From the NCBI GenBank assembly GCA_023484045.1, contig JAMDAA010000018.1, positions 4-64,003 of the forward strand: a DNA stretch of 64,000 nt, read 5' to 3'. The notes beneath the pieces are model-generated. The model was not told where the DNA came from and ran no database searches. It worked only from the letters and a program-made list of their open reading frames with translations. Below are positions 4,092-58,308 of the stretch, one piece after another (the first letter of the stretch is position 1; the number at the start of each line of letters is the position of its first letter). The translations under genes were made by a program, and so were the position numbers. Source of the DNA: Patescibacteria group bacterium (GTDB lineage Bacteria > Patescibacteriota > Microgenomatia > Levybacterales > UBA12049).

Positions 4092-5756
4092 TTAATTCGA
4101 AGGAGTACAGCGAAGCGTCGGGTCTTGACCCGTAGCTATACATTGACTCGTTTCAACACAACAGTCGCTTCCGAGCACGCATATGCCGGCATCCGGGATG
4201 CAAACCGGTGTAGGCGTAGGAGTTTGCGTCGGCGTTGAGGTGGGTGTCGGGATCGGAGTATTTGTAGGAGTCGGTGTATTGGTCAGAACAGGTGTGTTCG
4301 TAGGGATCGGGGTAAGCGTTGGTGTATTCGTTGGAGGAGGGGTGTTGCAATAAAACTGCAGACTCGGAGAGAACGGGGAAAATGTGTTGCACGATGTACA
4401 GGTCGAATACGCCCATTGTGCGTAATAACTTTGTCCTTCGCTGAATATAAACCCACTCGTATAGGATTGGGTTCCGGGATTATTCGGATTGGAAGGAGTT
4501 ACTGTGTTATTAACCATCTGGTTTCCGCCGCCCGACGTTCCAACCGTAAACGCAAATTGTTGAGCACTTTTAATAACGGAATTATTATTATATAAAAACT
4601 GCACTTGCCATAAGCCGTTGCTTTTACCGACGCACGTGTTTGTCATGCTGTTTGCGGGCGGGACCGGCGGAACGTTCTGCGCGTTAATCGTTAAAATTTC
4701 GTTAACCGCAGGCGCCGCGACGGTTATTATTTGAGACGAGGTCGTGGTGTTTCCGTTTGTTATTAAATAAGCTTGTATATCGTATGTAACTCCGTTTGTC
4801 GCCTGATTCCAATTCCAGGAAACGTCATCTGCGACCGGAATCCCGCTTAATACCGTATTGAACTGAGATGTTCCACTCTGGCGCGTCGCGATCGAATAAG
4901 TGCTATTTTGCGGGATAATTCCGTTATGGTCTATCGTCCCTGAAATCGAAACTAATGTCGGTCCTCCGGGCGGAACGGCGGTTGAATTTATTCTTAATGT
5001 TTCATTGTATGCCGGCGCCGCTGTTGTTAAAATTTTGGATTGGGAGATCGTCGCATTGTTTAAAATAAGATAAGCCTGAACATCATAGGTTGCACCACTA
5101 TCTGCTTCGTTCCAGCTCCAGGTAATACCGTCTTTTGCGGAAAGACTGCTTACAATCGGGTTAAACTGGGACACGCCGCTTTTTCTCGCCGATATATTAA
5201 TCGTTGCTCCAACCGGCACATATCCGTTTAAATCGATCGATCCGGAAAGTGTCGACTTTTGCGGCTTCTGGGGAGTCGCCTTAGAATTAATTCTTATAAC
5301 CTCACTGTCTGCCGGAGCGACGATTATTTGAGAGTCTGACTGTCCGATTTTATTCCCATTTTGCATTAAAAAACCTTGAATTTCGTACGCGACGCCCGAC
5401 TGAGATCCATCCCAACTCCAAACCGCGCCGTCGATCGGGGAAATATTTGTGATAACCGTGTTGAAATTTGACTCGCCGACTTTTCGCGCGAGAACCGAAA
5501 TCGTGGAATCACTCGGCGCGACCCCGTTAAAATCGATCGTACCCGAAATCGAAGATAAACCGATCGATTCCGATCCGCCCGAAGAACTATTTTTGTTATT
5601 TCTGTTTTGAAAATAAAAAATTCCGAAGACAAGCTGTATCAGTATAAGCACGAAAACCGCGATACCGATCACAGTTATATATTTTTGGTTCACACCAGCA
5701 CTACCAGAATTTTCGTCCATTAATAAAAGTATTAATCCAAAAACATGTTTTGTCAA
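4092..5756 (-). CDS. cell-surface protein with four ~90-aa tandem Ig-like repeats, Pro/Thr linker and Cys-rich C-terminal knot
   Basis: N-terminal TM/signal; repeat unit 'SISGTIDxNG..P..ST.S..ARK.G.SQFN.V.S......WSW...' x4; '[24 protein letters not shown]' linker; C-terminal '[21 protein letters not shown]'. Confidence 0.6.
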
Positions 5757-5774: not shown

Positions 5775-6546
5775 ACACCCTCCAGGTGTTATGACTTTAC
5801 ACCTATTCTTACCCAATTCCTACTCTAGAGTTAAATGTTTAACGTGCTCTAATTCTTTTGCGTAGCTAATTTGATCCATAACAAACCTCTTATAATCTAT
5901 GTTTGACTTAAACATTCTCAATACCAATTCTTTTTCTGCTATATTTTCGTTTAATAAAGAAATATATTCCGGATATGAGGACCAGAGATAACTATCAAGT
6001 TGCTCTATTTTTATAATACTAGAAACTACTGGATTTAAATGAATATAACGAGATAAATGAATCAGTTGCTCATCGCTTTCCACATAGACTGCTTTAAAAG
6101 TTCCTTCAAATAATGGTCCAGCCCTTTGAATCTTAGTATTGAAATACCTCGTGTACGCATTTGTAAAATTTGCCACGAAAGTGGTTATTCCTTTATCTAC
6201 GTTTTGTTTTAATATAAAATGAAAATGGTTAGGCATTAAACAATAGCTTAATATATCAACCAATTTTTCGCTTTTATATAGTTTTTCCAACATATTCTTT
6301 TTTGCCTCTTCTGGTTGTTGGATTAATTGAGAAAATCTTATTGGAATATCTTTATGCCTATAAAATTTAATAAGTTTTTGAGCTCTGTCAAATTCTCTTT
6401 TATTACTAAAGATAGATTTTCTTTCTATGCCTCGATTAAATATGTGGTAAATTTCTGCATTTCTAAATACTAACTTTCTGTTTGTTGCCATAAAATAATA
6501 ATAAAGGGGAAAAGAAGACGTGTCAAGCTAAAACACCCTAAGGGTG
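5775..6546 (-). mobile_element. REP-like palindrome / RAYT-like transposase / REP-like palindrome unit
   Basis: ACACC-CTCCA-GGTGT at 5775..5789 and ACACCC-TAA-GGGTG at 6533..6546 bracket the transposase gene. Confidence 0.55.
5820..6491 (-). CDS. IS200-like Y1 (HUH) transposase, RAYT-like
   Basis: HUH motif 'MPNHFHFIL' and catalytic-Tyr region 'SRYIHLNPV'; paralog at 32579..33244. Confidence 0.75.
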   Translation of the reverse strand: MATNRKLVFRNAEIYHIFNRGIERKSIFSNKREFDRAQKLIKFYRHKDIPIRFSQLIQQPEEAKKNMLEKLYKSEKLVDILSYCLMPNHFHFILKQNVDKGITTFVANFTNAYTRYFNTKIQRAGPLFEGTFKAVYVESDEQLIHLSRYIHLNPVVSSIIKIEQLDSYLWSSYPEYISLLNENIAEKELVLRMFKSNIDYKRFVMDQISYAKELEHVKHLTLE

Positions 6547-32238: not shown

Positions 32239-32354
32239 CAAACAGAATGGGTGCGGACGAGAGGACTTTCTTCGACTTCGCTCAGAATAAACTTCTCGTC
32301 CTCTCTTATCCTTCCGTTCAACAAACTCAAGCAACCCTGAGCTCGCCGAATGGG

Positions 32355-32438
32355 TGCGGACGAGAGGACTCGAACCTCCACGCTTTTTAGGGCACAGCCA
32401 CCTCAAGGCTGCGTGTATACCAGTTTCACCACGTCCGC
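32355..32438 (-). tRNA. tRNA-Leu (anticodon GAG), long variable arm
   Basis: manual fold: acceptor GCGGACG/CGTCCGC, anticodon stem CAGCC/GGCTG loop TTGAGGT, 16-nt variable arm. Confidence 0.8.
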
Positions 32439-32523
32439 ATGTAAACATTATATCAAAAAAGAGACAAGAAAATAATTATTTAGCATTTAGCGTCAGTCAC
32501 ATTGCTTCACTTATTTCATATTT

Positions 32524-33301
32524 CACCCCTGGGGTGATCTAGCTTGGCACCCCAGCAAGGATTTTATATTTTAGATATTTATTCAATAATCATTTTTTTT
32601 ATTAAACCAAGATTTCTTTGATAATCGACTTGATCAGCAACAAACTCAAAATATTTTTCTTTAGATTTGAACATACCGAGTAAAAAATCGGAGAAAACAA
32701 ACCTGTTAATGTTTACGTCTACATACCAAGAAAGTGAACTCCAAGGATAAGAAGCTAAGTATTTAAATTCGATAAGAAAAGAGGTAACAGGGTTTAAATG
32801 GATATATCGGGAAAGATGCAAAAATTCTTCATCGGTTTCTACCCATCTTGCTTTAAAAGAGTTTTCGAACAAAGTACCATGACGACCGTTTATTAGATTA
32901 TGGTTTTTGGCAAAACTGTTTTGAAAATTTGAAACAAACCTTAAAATACCACTATCTTGAAGTTGTTTAAGAAGAAAGTGGTAATGGTTAGGCATCAAAA
33001 CAAAAGCATAAATTTCAACTAAAGGGGTTTTACCCTTAATATTTATTGCATATTCTTCCCTAAGATTTCTTGGGAGTGTTTTAAATTTTGAATATCTTAA
33101 TTCTTGAGAAAAACGATAGTAGTCAATAATATCAAGAGCTTTATTTAAGGCTTTTTTATTAGCAAAAATTTCTTCCTTGCCAACTGAACGATTAAACACA
33201 TGGTATATTTCATTTGATGCGAAAATGAGATTTCTTCGAGGCATAAAATAAATTTATTATGAATTTCCTGGAGTGTCAATAGTCAAACACCCCAGGGGTG
33301 T
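32524..33301 (-). mobile_element. REP-like palindrome / RAYT-like transposase / REP-like palindrome unit
   Basis: CACCCC-T-GGGGTG at 32524..32536 and ACACCCC-A-GGGGTGT at 33287..33301 bracket the gene. Confidence 0.55.
32579..33244 (-). CDS. IS200-like Y1 (HUH) transposase, RAYT-like, paralog 2
   Basis: 'MPNHYHFLL' HUH motif, 'SRYIHLNPV'; ~35-40% identical to 5820..6491 product. Confidence 0.75.
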   Translation of the reverse strand: MPRRNLIFASNEIYHVFNRSVGKEEIFANKKALNKALDIIDYYRFSQELRYSKFKTLPRNLREEYAINIKGKTPLVEIYAFVLMPNHYHFLLKQLQDSGILRFVSNFQNSFAKNHNLINGRHGTLFENSFKARWVETDEEFLHLSRYIHLNPVTSFLIEFKYLASYPWSSLSWYVDVNINRFVFSDFLLGMFKSKEKYFEFVADQVDYQRNLGLIKKMIIE

Positions 33302-33322
33302 CTTTGTCTTTATCTTATCTAG

Positions 33323-33406
33323 TGCCGAGAGAGGGATTCGAACCCTCAATCCGTTACCGGAACACGGCCCTGAACCGTGCGCGTCTACCAGTTTCGCCAT
33401 CTCGGC
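33323..33406 (-). tRNA. tRNA-Leu (anticodon CAG), long variable arm
   Basis: manual fold: acceptor GCCGAGA/TCTCGGC, anticodon stem CACGG/CCGTG loop TTCAGGG, T arm GAGGG-TTCGAAT-CCCTC. Confidence 0.8.
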
Positions 33407-38000: not shown

Positions 38001-38246
38001 ATGTGGTACGTATATGTTTTGAAAAGTATAGTAAATTCGAGATTTTATACAGGATCAACAAATAACTTGGAAAGAAGATTAAAAGAACATAATTCAGGGC
38101 ATAGTAAATATACAAGGTTAACTAAACCTTTTGAAATTATATACCAAGAAACTTACAAAAAGAGACTTGAGGCACGGAGGAGAGAATTATTTTTAAAAAC
38201 TGGTAAGGGAAGAGAGTTATTGAAAAGTTTAATCATGGACTCTTAG
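38001..38246 (+). CDS. GIY-YIG nuclease family protein, copy 2 (embedded between tRNA-Val fragment and intact tRNA-Val)
   Basis: 'MWYVYVLKSIVNSRFYTGSTNNLERRLKEH'; stop codon TAG lies at positions 8-10 of the downstream tRNA. Confidence 0.75.
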   Translation: MWYVYVLKSIVNSRFYTGSTNNLERRLKEHNSGHSKYTRLTKPFEIIYQETYKKRLEARRRELFLKTGKGRELLKSLIMDS

Positions 38247-38310
38247 CTCAGTTGGTTAGAGCGCGTCGTTGACATCGACGAGGTCGCAGGTTCGAATCCT
38301 ACAGAGTCCA
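38237..38310 (+). tRNA. tRNA-Val (anticodon GAC)
   Basis: manual fold: GGACTCT-TA-GCTC-AGTTGGTTA-GAGC-G-CGTCG-TTGACAT-CGACG-AGGTC-GCAGG-TTCGAAT-CCTAC-AGAGTCC-A (one C-A mismatch in T stem). Confidence 0.75.
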
Positions 38311-38377
38311 CTTAGCTAAGTTTGTTAGAGCGGTCGCCTTAGGCGACAGGTCACAAGTTCGACTCTTGTCGAGCCCA
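38311..38377 (+). pseudogene. tRNA-like 3' fragment with degenerate D arm, same aberrant anticodon hairpin, distinct T arm and CGAGCCC-A 3' end
   Basis: 'GTTAGAGCGGTCGCCTTAGGCGACAGGTC' shared with 37951..37979; no matching 5' acceptor strand. Confidence 0.4.
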
Positions 38378-54843: not shown

Positions 54844-55881
54844 ATGGAAGAAGAATTAGTCGGGATTAAAAATGCGGCGATTTCATTTACTCTGGAATGT
54901 AATTCTTTGGAAGAGCTTGAAGAAGTGAAACTTCAATTTTTGGGTCGAAGCGGAAAATTGACACAGACGATTAAAAATATCGCGACCGTTCCTTTAGAAA
55001 AACGGCCGGAAATCGGGATGCTTGCAAACGAAATAAAAAATATAATCGAAGAAACGATCGAGCAAAAACACGAAACTTTAAAGTCTGAACATTATAAAAA
55101 AAGAAAAGAGGCAATCGATATTACAAAACCCGGAATTAAACCCAAAATCGGACATATTCATCCGATTACCCAAACGATTTTAGAAATGATCGATATTTTT
55201 AAAGGCATCGGATTCCAGGTAGCAGACGGCCCCGAAATCGAAACCGATTATTATAACTTTGAGGCGCTGAATATCCCGAAAGATCATCCATCGCGAGACA
55301 CACAACAAACATTATACCTTGACACAAGAAACAGCAAGGTCGAACCCGGAGAAGTAATTCTTAGAACCCAAACATCAAATATGCAGGGAAGAATAATGCA
55401 AAAAATAAAACCCCCGTTTCGGGTAATCGTTCCCGGAAAAGTTTACCGCTACGAACAGGTCGACGCGTCACACGGATTCGAATTCTGGCAACTCGAAGGA
55501 TTTACTATAGATAAAAATATTACCATGTCAGATCTTTTCGGAACACTCGATTACTTTATAAAGAAATTTTATGGCAATGATACAAAAGTAAAATTTGTTT
55601 GCCATAATTTTCCGTTTGTTGAACCGGGTGCCGAAGCATATATTACTTGCACGGTCTGCAAAGGAAAAGGCTGCACTTTTTGTAAAAGAAGCGGTTGGGT
55701 CGAAATGTTGGGTGCCGGAATGATTCATCCGAATGTTTTAAAAGCCGCAAAGATTGATCCCAATGAGTGGCAAGGTTTTGCTTTCGGAACAGGATTTTCC
55801 AGAATGGCAACATTAAAATATCAGATGGATGATTTAAGACTCTTAACAAACCCTGATCTTAGAATTTTAAATCAATTCTGA
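54844..55881 (+). CDS. pheS: phenylalanine--tRNA ligase alpha subunit
   Basis: class II motifs incl. 'FRVIVPGKVYRYEQVDASHGFEFWQLEG', 'GAGMIHPNVL', C-terminal 'GFAFGTGFSRMATLKY'. Confidence 0.9.
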   Translation: MEEELVGIKNAAISFTLECNSLEELEEVKLQFLGRSGKLTQTIKNIATVPLEKRPEIGMLANEIKNIIEETIEQKHETLKSEHYKKRKEAIDITKPGIKPKIGHIHPITQTILEMIDIFKGIGFQVADGPEIETDYYNFEALNIPKDHPSRDTQQTLYLDTRNSKVEPGEVILRTQTSNMQGRIMQKIKPPFRVIVPGKVYRYEQVDASHGFEFWQLEGFTIDKNITMSDLFGTLDYFIKKFYGNDTKVKFVCHNFPFVEPGAEAYITCTVCKGKGCTFCKRSGWVEMLGAGMIHPNVLKAAKIDPNEWQGFAFGTGFSRMATLKYQMDDLRLLTNPDLRILNQF

Positions 55882-55928
55882 ATTATGAATTCTAAATTTA
55901 AAATGGAAGAATAGGTGTAGCTATAAAA

Positions 55929-55943
55929 ACACCCTAAGGGTGT
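55929..55943. repeat. solo REP-like palindrome ACACCC-TAA-GGGTGT
   Basis: identical core to the palindrome at 6533..6546 flanking RAYT-like gene 1. Confidence 0.5.
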
Positions 55944-55967
55944 AAAGCTGCTCCTGAAAGGATACAG

Positions 55968-56414
55968 ATGTTAATAAAAAATAAGAAGAAACACCGACAT
56001 TTAGCAGTAGTTGCGATTATTTTTAATGACGAGGGAAAGATATTGTTAACTCAACGAGATGAACCAAAGACACATGCTCATAAAAAATGGCATTTCCCGG
56101 GTGGGGGAATCGAATTTGGCGAACACCCAAAACAAACTGCCCTTCGAGAAGTATTAGAAGAAGTGGGAATAAATATCGAATTATTATCGGATGATCCTTT
56201 CGTTCATTCATTCGTTTTTGAAGAAGTGAACGTTCATGCAGTAGTTCTTGCTTATCCCGCAAAATATGTATCGGGTAAAATTGATATAACCAAAGACCTT
56301 CACACGGGAGATGCAAAGTGGTTTAACAGTGAAGAAATTGATTTTTCTATCTGTCTACCAGAAGTAGAAAAACTGATCAATAAAGCCAAAAAATACTCAA
56401 TACTAGATACTTAA
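55968..56414 (+). CDS. NUDIX hydrolase
   Basis: Nudix box 'GGGIEFGEHPKQTALREVLEEVGINI'. Confidence 0.75.
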   Translation: MLIKNKKKHRHLAVVAIIFNDEGKILLTQRDEPKTHAHKKWHFPGGGIEFGEHPKQTALREVLEEVGINIELLSDDPFVHSFVFEEVNVHAVVLAYPAKYVSGKIDITKDLHTGDAKWFNSEEIDFSICLPEVEKLINKAKKYSILDT

Positions 56415-56421
56415 TACTATT

Positions 56422-58308
56422 ATGCTTGCGCCCTTATCTTGGTTAAAAGAATACGTAGATATAACATTAACTCCAAGCGTCCTCGGAGAACGCCTTACCG
56501 AGGTCGGGCTTGGTGTTGAAAAAATCGAAAAAGTCGACGGCGACGTTATTTTCGATTTAGAAATCACCCCTAACAGACCGGATTGCCTTTCAATTTTAGG
56601 AATCGCACGGGAGATCGCGGCGATCGAAGGTAAAAAAATAAAATACCCTAAATTAAAAAATGACTTGGAAAAAATTAAAGCTAAAAAAATATTACCACTT
56701 ACGATTGAAACAGACCACAAAATAAATCCGCGATTCACTGGAATTATAATCGACGGCGTAAAAGTTGAGGAATCTCCGGAATGGTTAAAAGAAAAATTAT
56801 TAAAAATAAATCAACGGCCGATAAACAATATCGTCGACATAACAAACTATGTAATGTTGGAACTCGGTAATCCGATCCATGCTTTTGACTACGACAAAAT
56901 TAAAGATCATATTATGCAGGTAAAACTTACCCGCGGCGGAGAACCGTTTAAATCTGTCGACGGATTAAATTACCGTCTGCCAAAGGATGCTGTTATTATC
57001 ACCGACTCTGAAAAAATTATCGACCTTTGCGGGATAAAAGGCGGTTACAATTCGGGAACTTTCGACAGCACAAAAACAATTTTTATAAGAGTTCCTGTTG
57101 AGGTTTCATTGTTAACAAGAAGATCATCCCAGGCGTTAGGTTTAAGGTCTGAGGCGAGCAGTATTTTCGAAAGGGGAGTAAACGCCGGTGGAACAATCGA
57201 CGCGCTAAAACGATGCGTCGATTTAATTTTGGAACTCGCGGGCGGAGAAGTCGCGAGTAAAATCTACGATTTAAAAAATCAGGAATTTAATCCTTGGAAA
57301 ATAAAATTAAGAATCGAAAAATTAAACAAAATCTTAGGAATCGAAATAAAAGAAACCGAAATCCTAAATATTTTAGAAAGATTAAATTTAAAACCAAAAA
57401 AATCCACTGAAATAATTACAGTAACTGTTCCTACTTACAGAAATGACTTAAAAATTGAAGAAGATATTATCGAAGAAGTCGCACGGCTTTACGGATACAA
57501 CAAATTTCCAAAAACTTTACCTTTTGGCGAAGTTCCAATAACAGAAATTCCGTATTTCAAAAATTACAAAATCGACGAAAAAGTAAAAAATATTTTAAAA
57601 TCTTGCGGATTTTCCGAAATTTATACGTACAGTTTAATTAGCGAAAAGGCTTTAGAAGAAACAGAAATAAGTCCCGAAAAAACACTCCGCATCGATAACC
57701 CCGTGAGCCTCGAGTATGAATACTTGAGGCCGACATTAAAATCAAACTTAATTAAAGCATTAATCCAAAATAAACCGAATTTCGACGAAATAAATCTTTT
57801 CGAACTCGGAAAAGTTTATTTGGGAAAAAATATCGACGACGCAAAAGAGGAGTATTATTTGTCCGGAATTTCAAACAAAAAAAATTATTACGAAATAAAG
57901 GGAATAATCGAAATAATTCTTTTTGAACTCGGAATTGACGAGGACGTGAATAAAAATATTGAGGTCGTAGATGAAGGAATTCTGTTCGAATTGAATTATT
58001 CAAAGCTTTTAGAAAAAATGACAAATAAAAAACTGTTTAAACAATTACCAAAGTATCCACCGGTTATCGAAGATATTGCGTTAATAGTTCCGAACGAAAT
58101 TAAAACGGGCGACATTATCGATGAGGTTAAAAAGCAAAGTGAAGTCATAAAACAAGTCGCACTTCTCGACGAGTTTGGAGAGACGCGAACTTTTCATATT
58201 GTCTATCAGGATATGCAGAAAAATCTGACAAGAGACGATGCTTTTAAAATCCGCGATAAATTCCTAAAAGTCCTCAAAGAAAAATTTGACGCCGAGATCA
58301 AAAAATAG
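56422..58308 (+). CDS. pheT: phenylalanine--tRNA ligase beta subunit (short, 628 aa)
   Basis: N-terminal 'MLAPLSWLKEYVDI', B3/4 and B5 domain patterns, C-terminal FDX-ACB-like region. Confidence 0.85.
   Translation: MLAPLSWLKEYVDITLTPSVLGERLTEVGLGVEKIEKVDGDVIFDLEITPNRPDCLSILGIAREIAAIEGKKIKYPKLKNDLEKIKAKKILPLTIETDHKINPRFTGIIIDGVKVEESPEWLKEKLLKINQRPINNIVDITNYVMLELGNPIHAFDYDKIKDHIMQVKLTRGGEPFKSVDGLNYRLPKDAVIITDSEKIIDLCGIKGGYNSGTFDSTKTIFIRVPVEVSLLTRRSSQALGLRSEASSIFERGVNAGGTIDALKRCVDLILELAGGEVASKIYDLKNQEFNPWKIKLRIEKLNKILGIEIKETEILNILERLNLKPKKSTEIITVTVPTYRNDLKIEEDIIEEVARLYGYNKFPKTLPFGEVPITEIPYFKNYKIDEKVKNILKSCGFSEIYTYSLISEKALEETEISPEKTLRIDNPVSLEYEYLRPTLKSNLIKALIQNKPNFDEINLFELGKVYLGKNIDDAKEEYYLSGISNKKNYYEIKGIIEIILFELGIDEDVNKNIEVVDEGILFELNYSKLLEKMTNKKLFKQLPKYPPVIEDIALIVPNEIKTGDIIDEVKKQSEVIKQVALLDEFGETRTFHIVYQDMQKNLTRDDAFKIRDKFLKVLKEKFDAEIKK

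Follow-up and report, generated by a model that had tools for sequence, protein, structure and literature searches.

Two genes for Y1 HUH nucleases, here named A and B, lie in a 64 kb stretch of a Patescibacteria genome (the window, that is, the whole 64,000 nt of contig JAMDAA010000018.1 that were analysed), each between short palindromes of its own type. On balance, we favour the view that each such locus is a REPtron- or TIRtron-like module, in which a single-copy class-2 Y1 nuclease gene is bracketed by its own cognate hairpin units. The layout is that of a low-copy relative of two known arrangements: repetitive extragenic palindromes (REPs) with their REP-associated tyrosine transposases (RAYTs), and terminal inverted repeats (TIRs) with TIRYT proteins. 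Patescibacteria genomes are very small and repeat-poor, and our literature search found no paper linking Patescibacteria to RAYT or REP.

The initial annotation had described palindromes around both genes and a further copy elsewhere. All five were found at these positions: four bracket the Y1 genes, so that each of the two divergent paralogs has a cognate palindrome type, and the fifth stands alone (Table 1). In the window, whose GC content is low (38%), four sites match the pattern CACCC-N(1-7)-GGGTG, a number far above chance (mean 0.05 and maximum 1 in 100 dinucleotide-preserving shuffles of the window), and three of these four sites, together with the variant at 5775, fall within 60 nt of the end of a Y1 gene. 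The 13-15 nt palindromes are the cores of larger units of 30-45 nt, composed of a hairpin, a spacer and a degenerate second hairpin; the spacer measures 8-11 nt, usually contains AGCT or TAGCT, and is followed by a third copy of the stem arm, often with loop bases added.

To place this arrangement in a wider context, we scanned the GTDB genome collection by protein alignment and obtained 79 homologous loci (numbered L002, L003 and so on; up to 20 kb were covered per relative, against 64 kb for this genome), of which 77, all from other genomes, entered the flank-hairpin statistics. Most of the 79 belong to Microgenomates-type Patescibacteria, with a minority from Saccharibacteria, Paceibacterota, Omnitrophota, Planctomycetaceae, Poribacteria, Anaerolineae and one cyanobacterium. 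Many of the GTDB records holding Patescibacteria-type loci (L002, L010, L011, L013 and others) bear the title 'uncultured Gammaproteobacteria bacterium' (TPA_asm binchicken assemblies), and one bears that of 'Nanoarchaeia archaeon'; such titles look unreliable as taxonomy.

In a typical locus, one hairpin starts 52-72 nt (commonly ~55) before the start codon and a second lies 10-60 nt past the stop. The two flanks of a gene were strongly matched: the innermost five stem bases agreed in 47 of the 77 cognate loci (61%), where the hairpins stand at about -55 and at +20 to +45, and the innermost six in 48%. When upstream and downstream flanks were paired across non-cognate loci, agreement fell to 1.5% (five bases) and 0.36% (six bases), and around random 670-bp pseudo-genes in the same loci to 0.47% and 0.10%, respectively. 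The stems themselves vary by lineage (CACCC, CACCT, CAACC, CACATC, CAACTC, AACCCC, ACGATCC, CCGAGCC), with long stems outside the Patescibacteria, while agreeing between the two sides of a gene. Paralogs of the same genome, which are 39-48% identical, carry different hairpins: CACCCT and TTCCAC in L021, GCAACCT and AAGGT in L041, ACGAT and TGAGGTG in L043, CACCC-TAA and CACCCC-T in the window. With the loop as the guide, 24 loci have flanks in inverted and 21 in direct orientation. In L007 and L025 the third arm is a full second hairpin, inverted, which resembles a REPIN or a BIME-like doublet. In L017 (contig JACPDA010000004.1, 769,731 bp, near-complete, Daviesbacteria), at least two Y1 paralogs, 48% identical, lie within 10 kb; hairpins with a 10-bp stem stand on either side of one of them, and none was detected beside the other.

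Cognate hairpins also occur away from the genes, once in the window and some 16 times over 790 kb of homologous loci, whereas 6-nt-stem patterns appear in non-cognate loci at only ~0-0.05 per 20 kb. Of 17 solo copies, all but one are intergenic. Several preserve the entire unit: over 29 nt, the copy at L021 7623 is identical to the gene-flanking one, and in L025, where several identical copies and doublets lie within 10 kb, four or more additional copies are present, of which three match a gene-flanking copy exactly for ~40 nt and some form pairs ~70 nt apart. A few units lie in frame inside coding regions, namely a solo copy in an rsmI-like methyltransferase ORF (open reading frame; L031 17842), a cognate unit inside the Y1 gene of L055 (5532) and, in L043 (10170-10200), a palindrome with a 12-bp stem, placed in the variable loop of the Y1 gene itself; such units recall the intragenic REPs reported for other RAYT subclasses. 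A scan of JGI metagenomes with a 21-base version of the window unit gave one further solo copy, too few for an estimate of copy number. This copy (L081 821-855) is near-identical to that of the window and lies 60 nt upstream of a tRNA-Gln gene on a contig without a Y1 gene.

The solo unit of the window (55908-55955) forms a composite imperfect palindrome whose predicted stability (-8.6 kcal/mol, z -3.8) was reached by none of 200 shuffles. It had been placed between pheS and pheT. The site is indeed intergenic, but its immediate neighbours are pheS (54844-55881) and a NUDIX gene (55968-56414), and pheT (56422-58308) comes only after the latter. At about one solo copy every 50 kb, a 1-Mb genome would by extrapolation hold tens of copies, not hundreds, and with a copy number this low the earlier description of an 'active or recently active REP system' overstates the case.

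The upstream unit of gene A folds as DNA at -4.0 kcal/mol (z -2.9), and its -55 position from the ATG is common to the homologous loci; the CTCCA/TGGAG loop type of its downstream unit also flanks the orthologs in L003, L004 and L050. The downstream unit of gene B is an inverted copy of the upstream one, with a 6-nt stem in common. As single-stranded DNA, both gene B units favour an alternative stem of 8-10 bp with the AGCT spacer as its loop (-7.8 and -8.3 kcal/mol; for the upstream unit a 10-bp stem and a 10-nt loop at -7.8 kcal/mol). An Rfam scan of the whole window returned tRNAs only, so the hairpins fit no curated RNA family. The 5' tetranucleotide known beside REP palindromes was absent: no GT[AG]G occurs at the foot of the window hairpins, where the adjoining bases are gct, aaaa, attt, caaa and aaaaa and the other side is A/T-rich, and the only GTAG lies 12 nt from the solo hairpin.

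Genes A and B are intact, conserved members of the Y1 HUH superfamily, as the initial annotation had recognized from their HUH and tyrosine motifs. The two proteins are 41% identical over their full length and both pass the gathering cutoff of Pfam Y1_Tnp (PF01797; 37.6 bits for A and 23.8 for B, cutoff 23). Both carry L-M-P-N-H-[FY]-H-F and S-R-Y-I-H-L-N-P-V (in ORF A, LMPNHFHFILKQ and SRYIHLNPV). Across 40 aligned sequences, H89, H91 and Y149 are invariant; within Y-I-H-L-N-P, which A and B share, Y, H, N and P are invariant and I and L nearly so, and the class-2 tyrosine motif Y-x-x-x-N-P is present in both proteins. Homolog searches returned 6598 and 2401 homologs (the second figure for gene B), and the clusters formed at 90% identity almost all hold one member on one contig. 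The deposited gene B (P0121, 206 aa) is 15 codons shorter at its 5' end than the form with the ATG at 33244; this 221-aa form, used here, regains the conserved N-terminus common to homologs (MPRRNLIF...YHVFNR), so the deposited start looks too short.

A sequence-profile search of the Protein Data Bank (PDB) was uninformative, returning ISDra2 TnpA alone, weakly (E 0.013), and no RAYT, and a fold search was therefore needed. For this, an AlphaFold2 (AF2) model of protein A was used (predicted local distance difference test, pLDDT, 89.8; predicted template modelling score, pTM, 0.86). Its best PDB fold match is 4ER8, the E. coli RAYT-REP complex (E 2.5e-6, 192 columns); it also matches ISDra2, IS608 and IS200 transposases at about 1e-4 to 1e-2, with IS608 and ISDra2 TnpA at E about 1e-4, and the PDB entries matched include 2XO6 and 2VJV. 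In NCBIfam, the sole nuclease match was REP_Tyr_transpos (NF047646), where A and B score 42.4 and 47.0 bits vs an equivalog cutoff of 80; for neither protein did an IS200 model match at E<=0.1, nor did the Pfam models Bac_DnaA_C, HTH_23 or HTH_28 at that threshold. Both proteins stop ~70 aa past the tyrosine, without the RGRPRK-type tail of the TIRYT references.

Beside the upstream hairpin, both genes have a promoter-like site with an exact TTGACA box, and the third arm of the upstream unit overlaps this box. Exact TTGACA in the matching geometry was found in 11 of the 17 loci whose start codon is known. In A and in B, 6 nt separate the end of the -10 box from the ATG, which leaves no space for a Shine-Dalgarno sequence; this implies that the mRNAs of the Y1 genes would be leaderless or near-leaderless, with a promoter, as judged from consensus matches, that abuts the hairpin. 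A role of the hairpins as intrinsic terminators was considered and rejected, the downstream hairpins being without a T-run; the 'terminator' called by the scan at 6534-6546 sits upstream of gene A.

Table 1. Y1 nuclease genes, palindromes, composite hairpin units and promoter-like sites, in window coordinates.
Feature	Position	Strand	Description
Y1 HUH nuclease gene A	5820..6491	-	223 aa; HUH at H89/H91, catalytic Tyr149
Y1 HUH nuclease gene B	32579..33244	-	221 aa; paralog of A
Palindrome downstream of gene A	5775-5789		ACACC-CTCCA-GGTGT
Palindrome upstream of gene A	6534-6546		CACCC-TAA-GGGTG
Palindrome downstream of gene B	32524-32536		CACCCC-T-GGGGTG
Palindrome upstream of gene B	33287-33301		ACACCCC-A-GGGGTGT
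Solo palindrome	55929-55943		ACACCC-TAA-GGGTGT; intergenic
Upstream unit of gene A	6518..6546	-	hairpin CACCC-TTA-GGGTG (6534-6546), AGCT spacer, third arm over -35 box
Downstream unit of gene A	5775..5804	-	hairpin ACACC-TGGAG-GGTGT (5775-5789), gene-proximal third arm CACCT (5800-5804)
Upstream unit of gene B	33267..33301	-	ACACCCC-T-GGGGTGT (33287-33301), spacer, third arm ACACTCCAGG
Downstream unit of gene B	32523..32555	-	CTGGGGTG-ccaAGCTagat-CACCCCAG-GGGTGA
Solo unit	55913..55955	+	AGGTG-tAGCTataaaa-ACACCC-TAA-GGGTGT-aAAGCTgctcc; no adjacent Y1 gene
Promoter-like site of gene A	6498..6526	-	TTGACA-17 nt-TATTAT; 11/12 consensus positions
Promoter-like site of gene B	33251..33279	-	TTGACA-17 nt-TAAATT

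We also examined how the genes are inherited. Where Y1 identity is 66-90%, neighbouring genes are kept in common (L012/L014/L019, L031/L041 and L074/L077), whereas gene A and its closest orthologs (L050, L002, L003 and L004, 60-70% identical) all lie in different gene neighbourhoods. With synteny mixed in this way, present in three clades and absent from that of gene A, movement of the cassette and rearrangement of the genome are not separable. No pair above 48% identity was seen within one genome or locus, within the reach of a search confined to the loci and of metagenome-assembled genomes, which can miss repeats. These data fit a Y1 gene that is mostly vertically inherited at low copy number, and occasional movement of the whole cassette is compatible with them.

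Gene B and its counterparts in L028, L032, L042, L049 and L052 lie within 250 bp of a tRNA gene, where a rough estimate expects ~1.4 in 60. Such proximity may reflect a target preference or a portable promoter. Gene B itself is flanked by two tRNA-Leu genes (window 32351-33406), its upstream unit lying 20 nt downstream of tRNA-Leu(cag), and two solo units aim a TTGACA or TTTACA box at a downstream tRNA gene (L035 5956, tRNA-Leu; L081 689-855, tRNA-Gln).

By analogy with E. coli TnpA-REP and with the TnpA proteins of IS608 and ISDra2, the protein would bind the folded hairpin on single-stranded DNA. Still by analogy, it would cleave nearby through Tyr149, with a metal bound by the HUH motif, and rejoin the DNA, so that units could now and then, at a low rate, be copied or moved in trans. 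Since the upstream unit abuts the -35 box of its gene and overlaps it, hairpin binding at this site would probably also autoregulate the predicted leaderless transcript. For binding, cleavage and rejoining, trans-mobilisation and autoregulation, the analogy draws on PMC3479197, PMC3333891 and PMC6006769.

Several observations weigh against a module of REPtron or TIRtron type. Mobility of the units is put forward by analogy. Their copy number, extrapolated from the loci, is far below that of classical REPs; no GTAG guide is present at the hairpin foot; and 21 of the 45 scorable flank pairs are direct, unlike the inverted REPs of classical REPtrons. The subclass that A and B most resemble has been reported without REPs (PMC6006769). 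Finally, the presence of gene A orthologs in unrelated neighbourhoods indicates that the gene cassette may itself move.

In the main alternative, which we regard as unlikely, the hairpin-gene-hairpin cassette (~770 bp) is an autonomous IS200-like insertion sequence (IS), its hairpins being the ends and the solo copies remnants or miniature derivatives. An element of this kind should leave near-identical copies and none were seen in the loci covered: paralogs of one genome are only 39-48% identical and the 90% clusters are almost all confined to one contig. Size and layout are IS200-like, the subterminal hairpins keeping a fixed distance to the ORF. The different neighbourhoods of the gene A orthologs, and the tRNA genes found next to several copies (gene B, L028, L032, L042, L049, L052), would suit a mobile cassette, but synteny is kept at 66-90% Y1 identity in the three clades named above and the orientation of the ends is mixed (24 inverted vs 21 direct). 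At the protein level, RAYT group 1 is among the more IS-like RAYTs (PMC5581495), but the tyrosine motif of A and B is YxxxNP, not the YxxxQ of IS200 transposases (PMC6006769), and no IS200 model of NCBIfam matched. The initial annotation had named two outcomes that would refute it, palindromes no more frequent than composition predicts and proteins clustering with canonical IS200 TnpA; the palindromes are far above chance, and the proteins do not group with IS200 TnpA. Very improbable, in our judgement, is a role of the hairpins that is only cis-regulatory, as an operator and a 3' stabiliser or terminator, with immobile hairpins and with solo copies as the decayed sites of former genes. The upstream hairpin is indeed fixed directly 5' of a conserved TTGACA-17-TAnnnT promoter and solo copies are few. 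However, at unrelated intergenic sites the solo copies retain the full set of hairpin, spacer and arm, and no gene remnant accompanies them, which makes a purely regulatory role unlikely, and neither the identical 40-nt copies and doublets within 10 kb of L025, nor the in-frame copies inside coding regions, nor the lack of a T-run in the downstream hairpins is what such a role would predict; moreover, independent regulatory hairpins need no paralog-specific co-variation between the 5' and 3' flanks. A chance origin in a low-GC genome could be argued from the stem length, which is short (5-7 bp), and from the general frequency of 5-bp palindromes, but four sites observed against 0.05 expected and the recurrence of the pattern, in matching positions, in 47 of the 77 independent loci refute it, and we give it essentially no weight.

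A more far-reaching proposal, for which we would hold out little expectation, is that either the cassette is an autonomous IS with a RAYT-class (Y-x-x-x-N-P) transposase, or the nuclease disperses the hairpin units as portable promoter or regulatory modules. If the former were true, it would be a new type of IS; if the latter, units with an embedded TTGACA box would have a host-level role in genomes otherwise nearly without repeats. Units that could serve as examples of such modules lie upstream of tRNA genes at L035 5956 and L081 821-855 and around gene B.

Two other features of the window were observed. A 554-aa ORF (4092-5756, minus strand) lies directly downstream of gene A; it has no Pfam match, comprises about four tandem repeats of ~95 aa each (SGTIDxNGxxP...YDxQAYL) and ends in a Thr/Pro-rich, Cys-containing C-terminus, and from its sequence it looks like a secreted or surface protein. 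A weak partial Rfam tRNA match (38313-38369, plus strand; 31 bits, model positions 8-63) directly follows tRNA-Val (38237-38311); ARAGORN makes no call there, and the match may represent a tandem tRNA that is truncated or degenerate.

Altogether, Patescibacteria genomes maintain hairpin repeats that co-evolve with a large clade of class-2 Y1 nucleases. The short stems, clear stem co-variation and paralog specificity make this a compact system for studying how Y1 nucleases read hairpins, and one that could show whether systems of this type are selfish, regulatory or both. The known mechanism of Y1 nucleases is unchanged by the finding.

Among known systems, IS200 (IS200/IS605, TnpA subclass 1.1) shares with these loci a unit of ~0.7-0.8 kb, one Y1 gene between subterminal hairpins and the same catalytic fold. 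It differs in its tyrosine motif, which is Y-x-x-x-Q in IS200 transposases and Y-x-x-x-N-P in class 2 (PMC6006769), and in its length (about 150 aa vs 221-223 aa); in addition, identical copies were not seen here, a tnpB partner is lacking and the hairpin orientation is mixed.

The comparison with canonical RAYT systems (E. coli RayT/YafM, PDB 4ER8, and Pseudomonas REPIN-RAYT; NF047646, subclasses 2.2 and 2.5 of Quentin et al.) is closer. Shared features are the Y1 HUH fold, Y-x-x-x-N-P, a single-copy gene between cognate palindromes, a separate repeat family for each paralog, mostly intergenic solo copies and, in some genomes, inverted doublets (REPIN/BIME-like). On the other hand, A and B fall under the 80-bit equivalog cutoff and have an extra C-terminal region of ~70 aa, GT[AG]G is missing at the hairpin foot, and REPs usually exceed 100 per genome where we extrapolate tens. 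The REP/RAYT architecture proposed in the initial annotation thus stands as regards the RAYT-related class, the cognate flanks with a type for each paralog, the solo copies and the 4ER8 fold match, but not for the equivalog cutoff, the family-profile scores, the GTAG foot, the copy number or the flank orientation, which is direct almost as often as inverted.

The closest relatives appear to be the TIRYTs of TIRtrons (Di Nocera et al., 2013, PMC3733652), which are TnpA-Y1 subclass 2.1 of Quentin et al., 2018 (PMC6006769) and RAYT group 1 of Bertels et al., 2017 (PMC5581495), the latter placing group 1 among the more IS-like groups. To compare them, 26 TIRYT and RAYT reference sequences, rebuilt from the alignment in Additional file 5 of Di Nocera et al., were scored with the family profile. 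The top 13 were all TIRYTs, the first 12 at 60-89 bits (this range includes cps 4446, hch 1378, gbm 2474, sml 4509, dau 2153 and rba 2408), while canonical RAYTs scored 12-46 bits (best 45.9) and E. coli RayT (b228) 19. By this ranking of profile scores, which is not a phylogeny, A and B would group with the TIRYTs (subclass 2.1, group 1) and not with canonical RAYTs. The signature of subclass 2.1 is N-H-[YF]-H, F-Q, Y-[IV]-H-L-N-P and S-S in the proximal tail (PMC6006769, Table 1); A and B have NHFH/NHYH, LF[EQ]xxFK, YIHLNP and WSS[YL], with F-[QE] replacing W-[QE]. Low copy number, divergent paralogs and gene-flanking repeats at fixed distances are further points in common. Differences are that A and B lack the long C-terminal helix-turn-helix (HTH)-like tail (Bac_DnaA_C, HTH_23, HTH_28), and that the flanks here are short hairpin units with an AGCT spacer, direct about as often as inverted, where those of TIRYTs are terminal inverted repeats, many with GGGGWSAS; the arms seen here (GGGGTGA, GGGGTGT) are similar to this consensus and do not fit it. 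The loci of A and B depart from the canonical RAYT/REP type in two features (equivalog score and GTAG foot) and from typical TIRYTs in one (C-terminal HTH).

Repeats at fixed distances on the flanks of TIRYT genes, some of them self-complementary and in moderately abundant families, were reported earlier by Di Nocera et al. (PMC3733652), so an arrangement of this kind is already known. Quentin et al. reported no REP-like sequences for subclass 2.1 (PMC6006769). What is new here is the host phylum, which the RAYT/REP surveys consulted had not covered, the co-variation of hairpins in a subclass reported without REPs, the hairpin-AGCT-arm unit and the conserved geometry of a hairpin beside a promoter. 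The continuum from REP/RAYT to TIRYT systems is thereby extended to a new phylum, and within it to a protein subclass reported without REP association.

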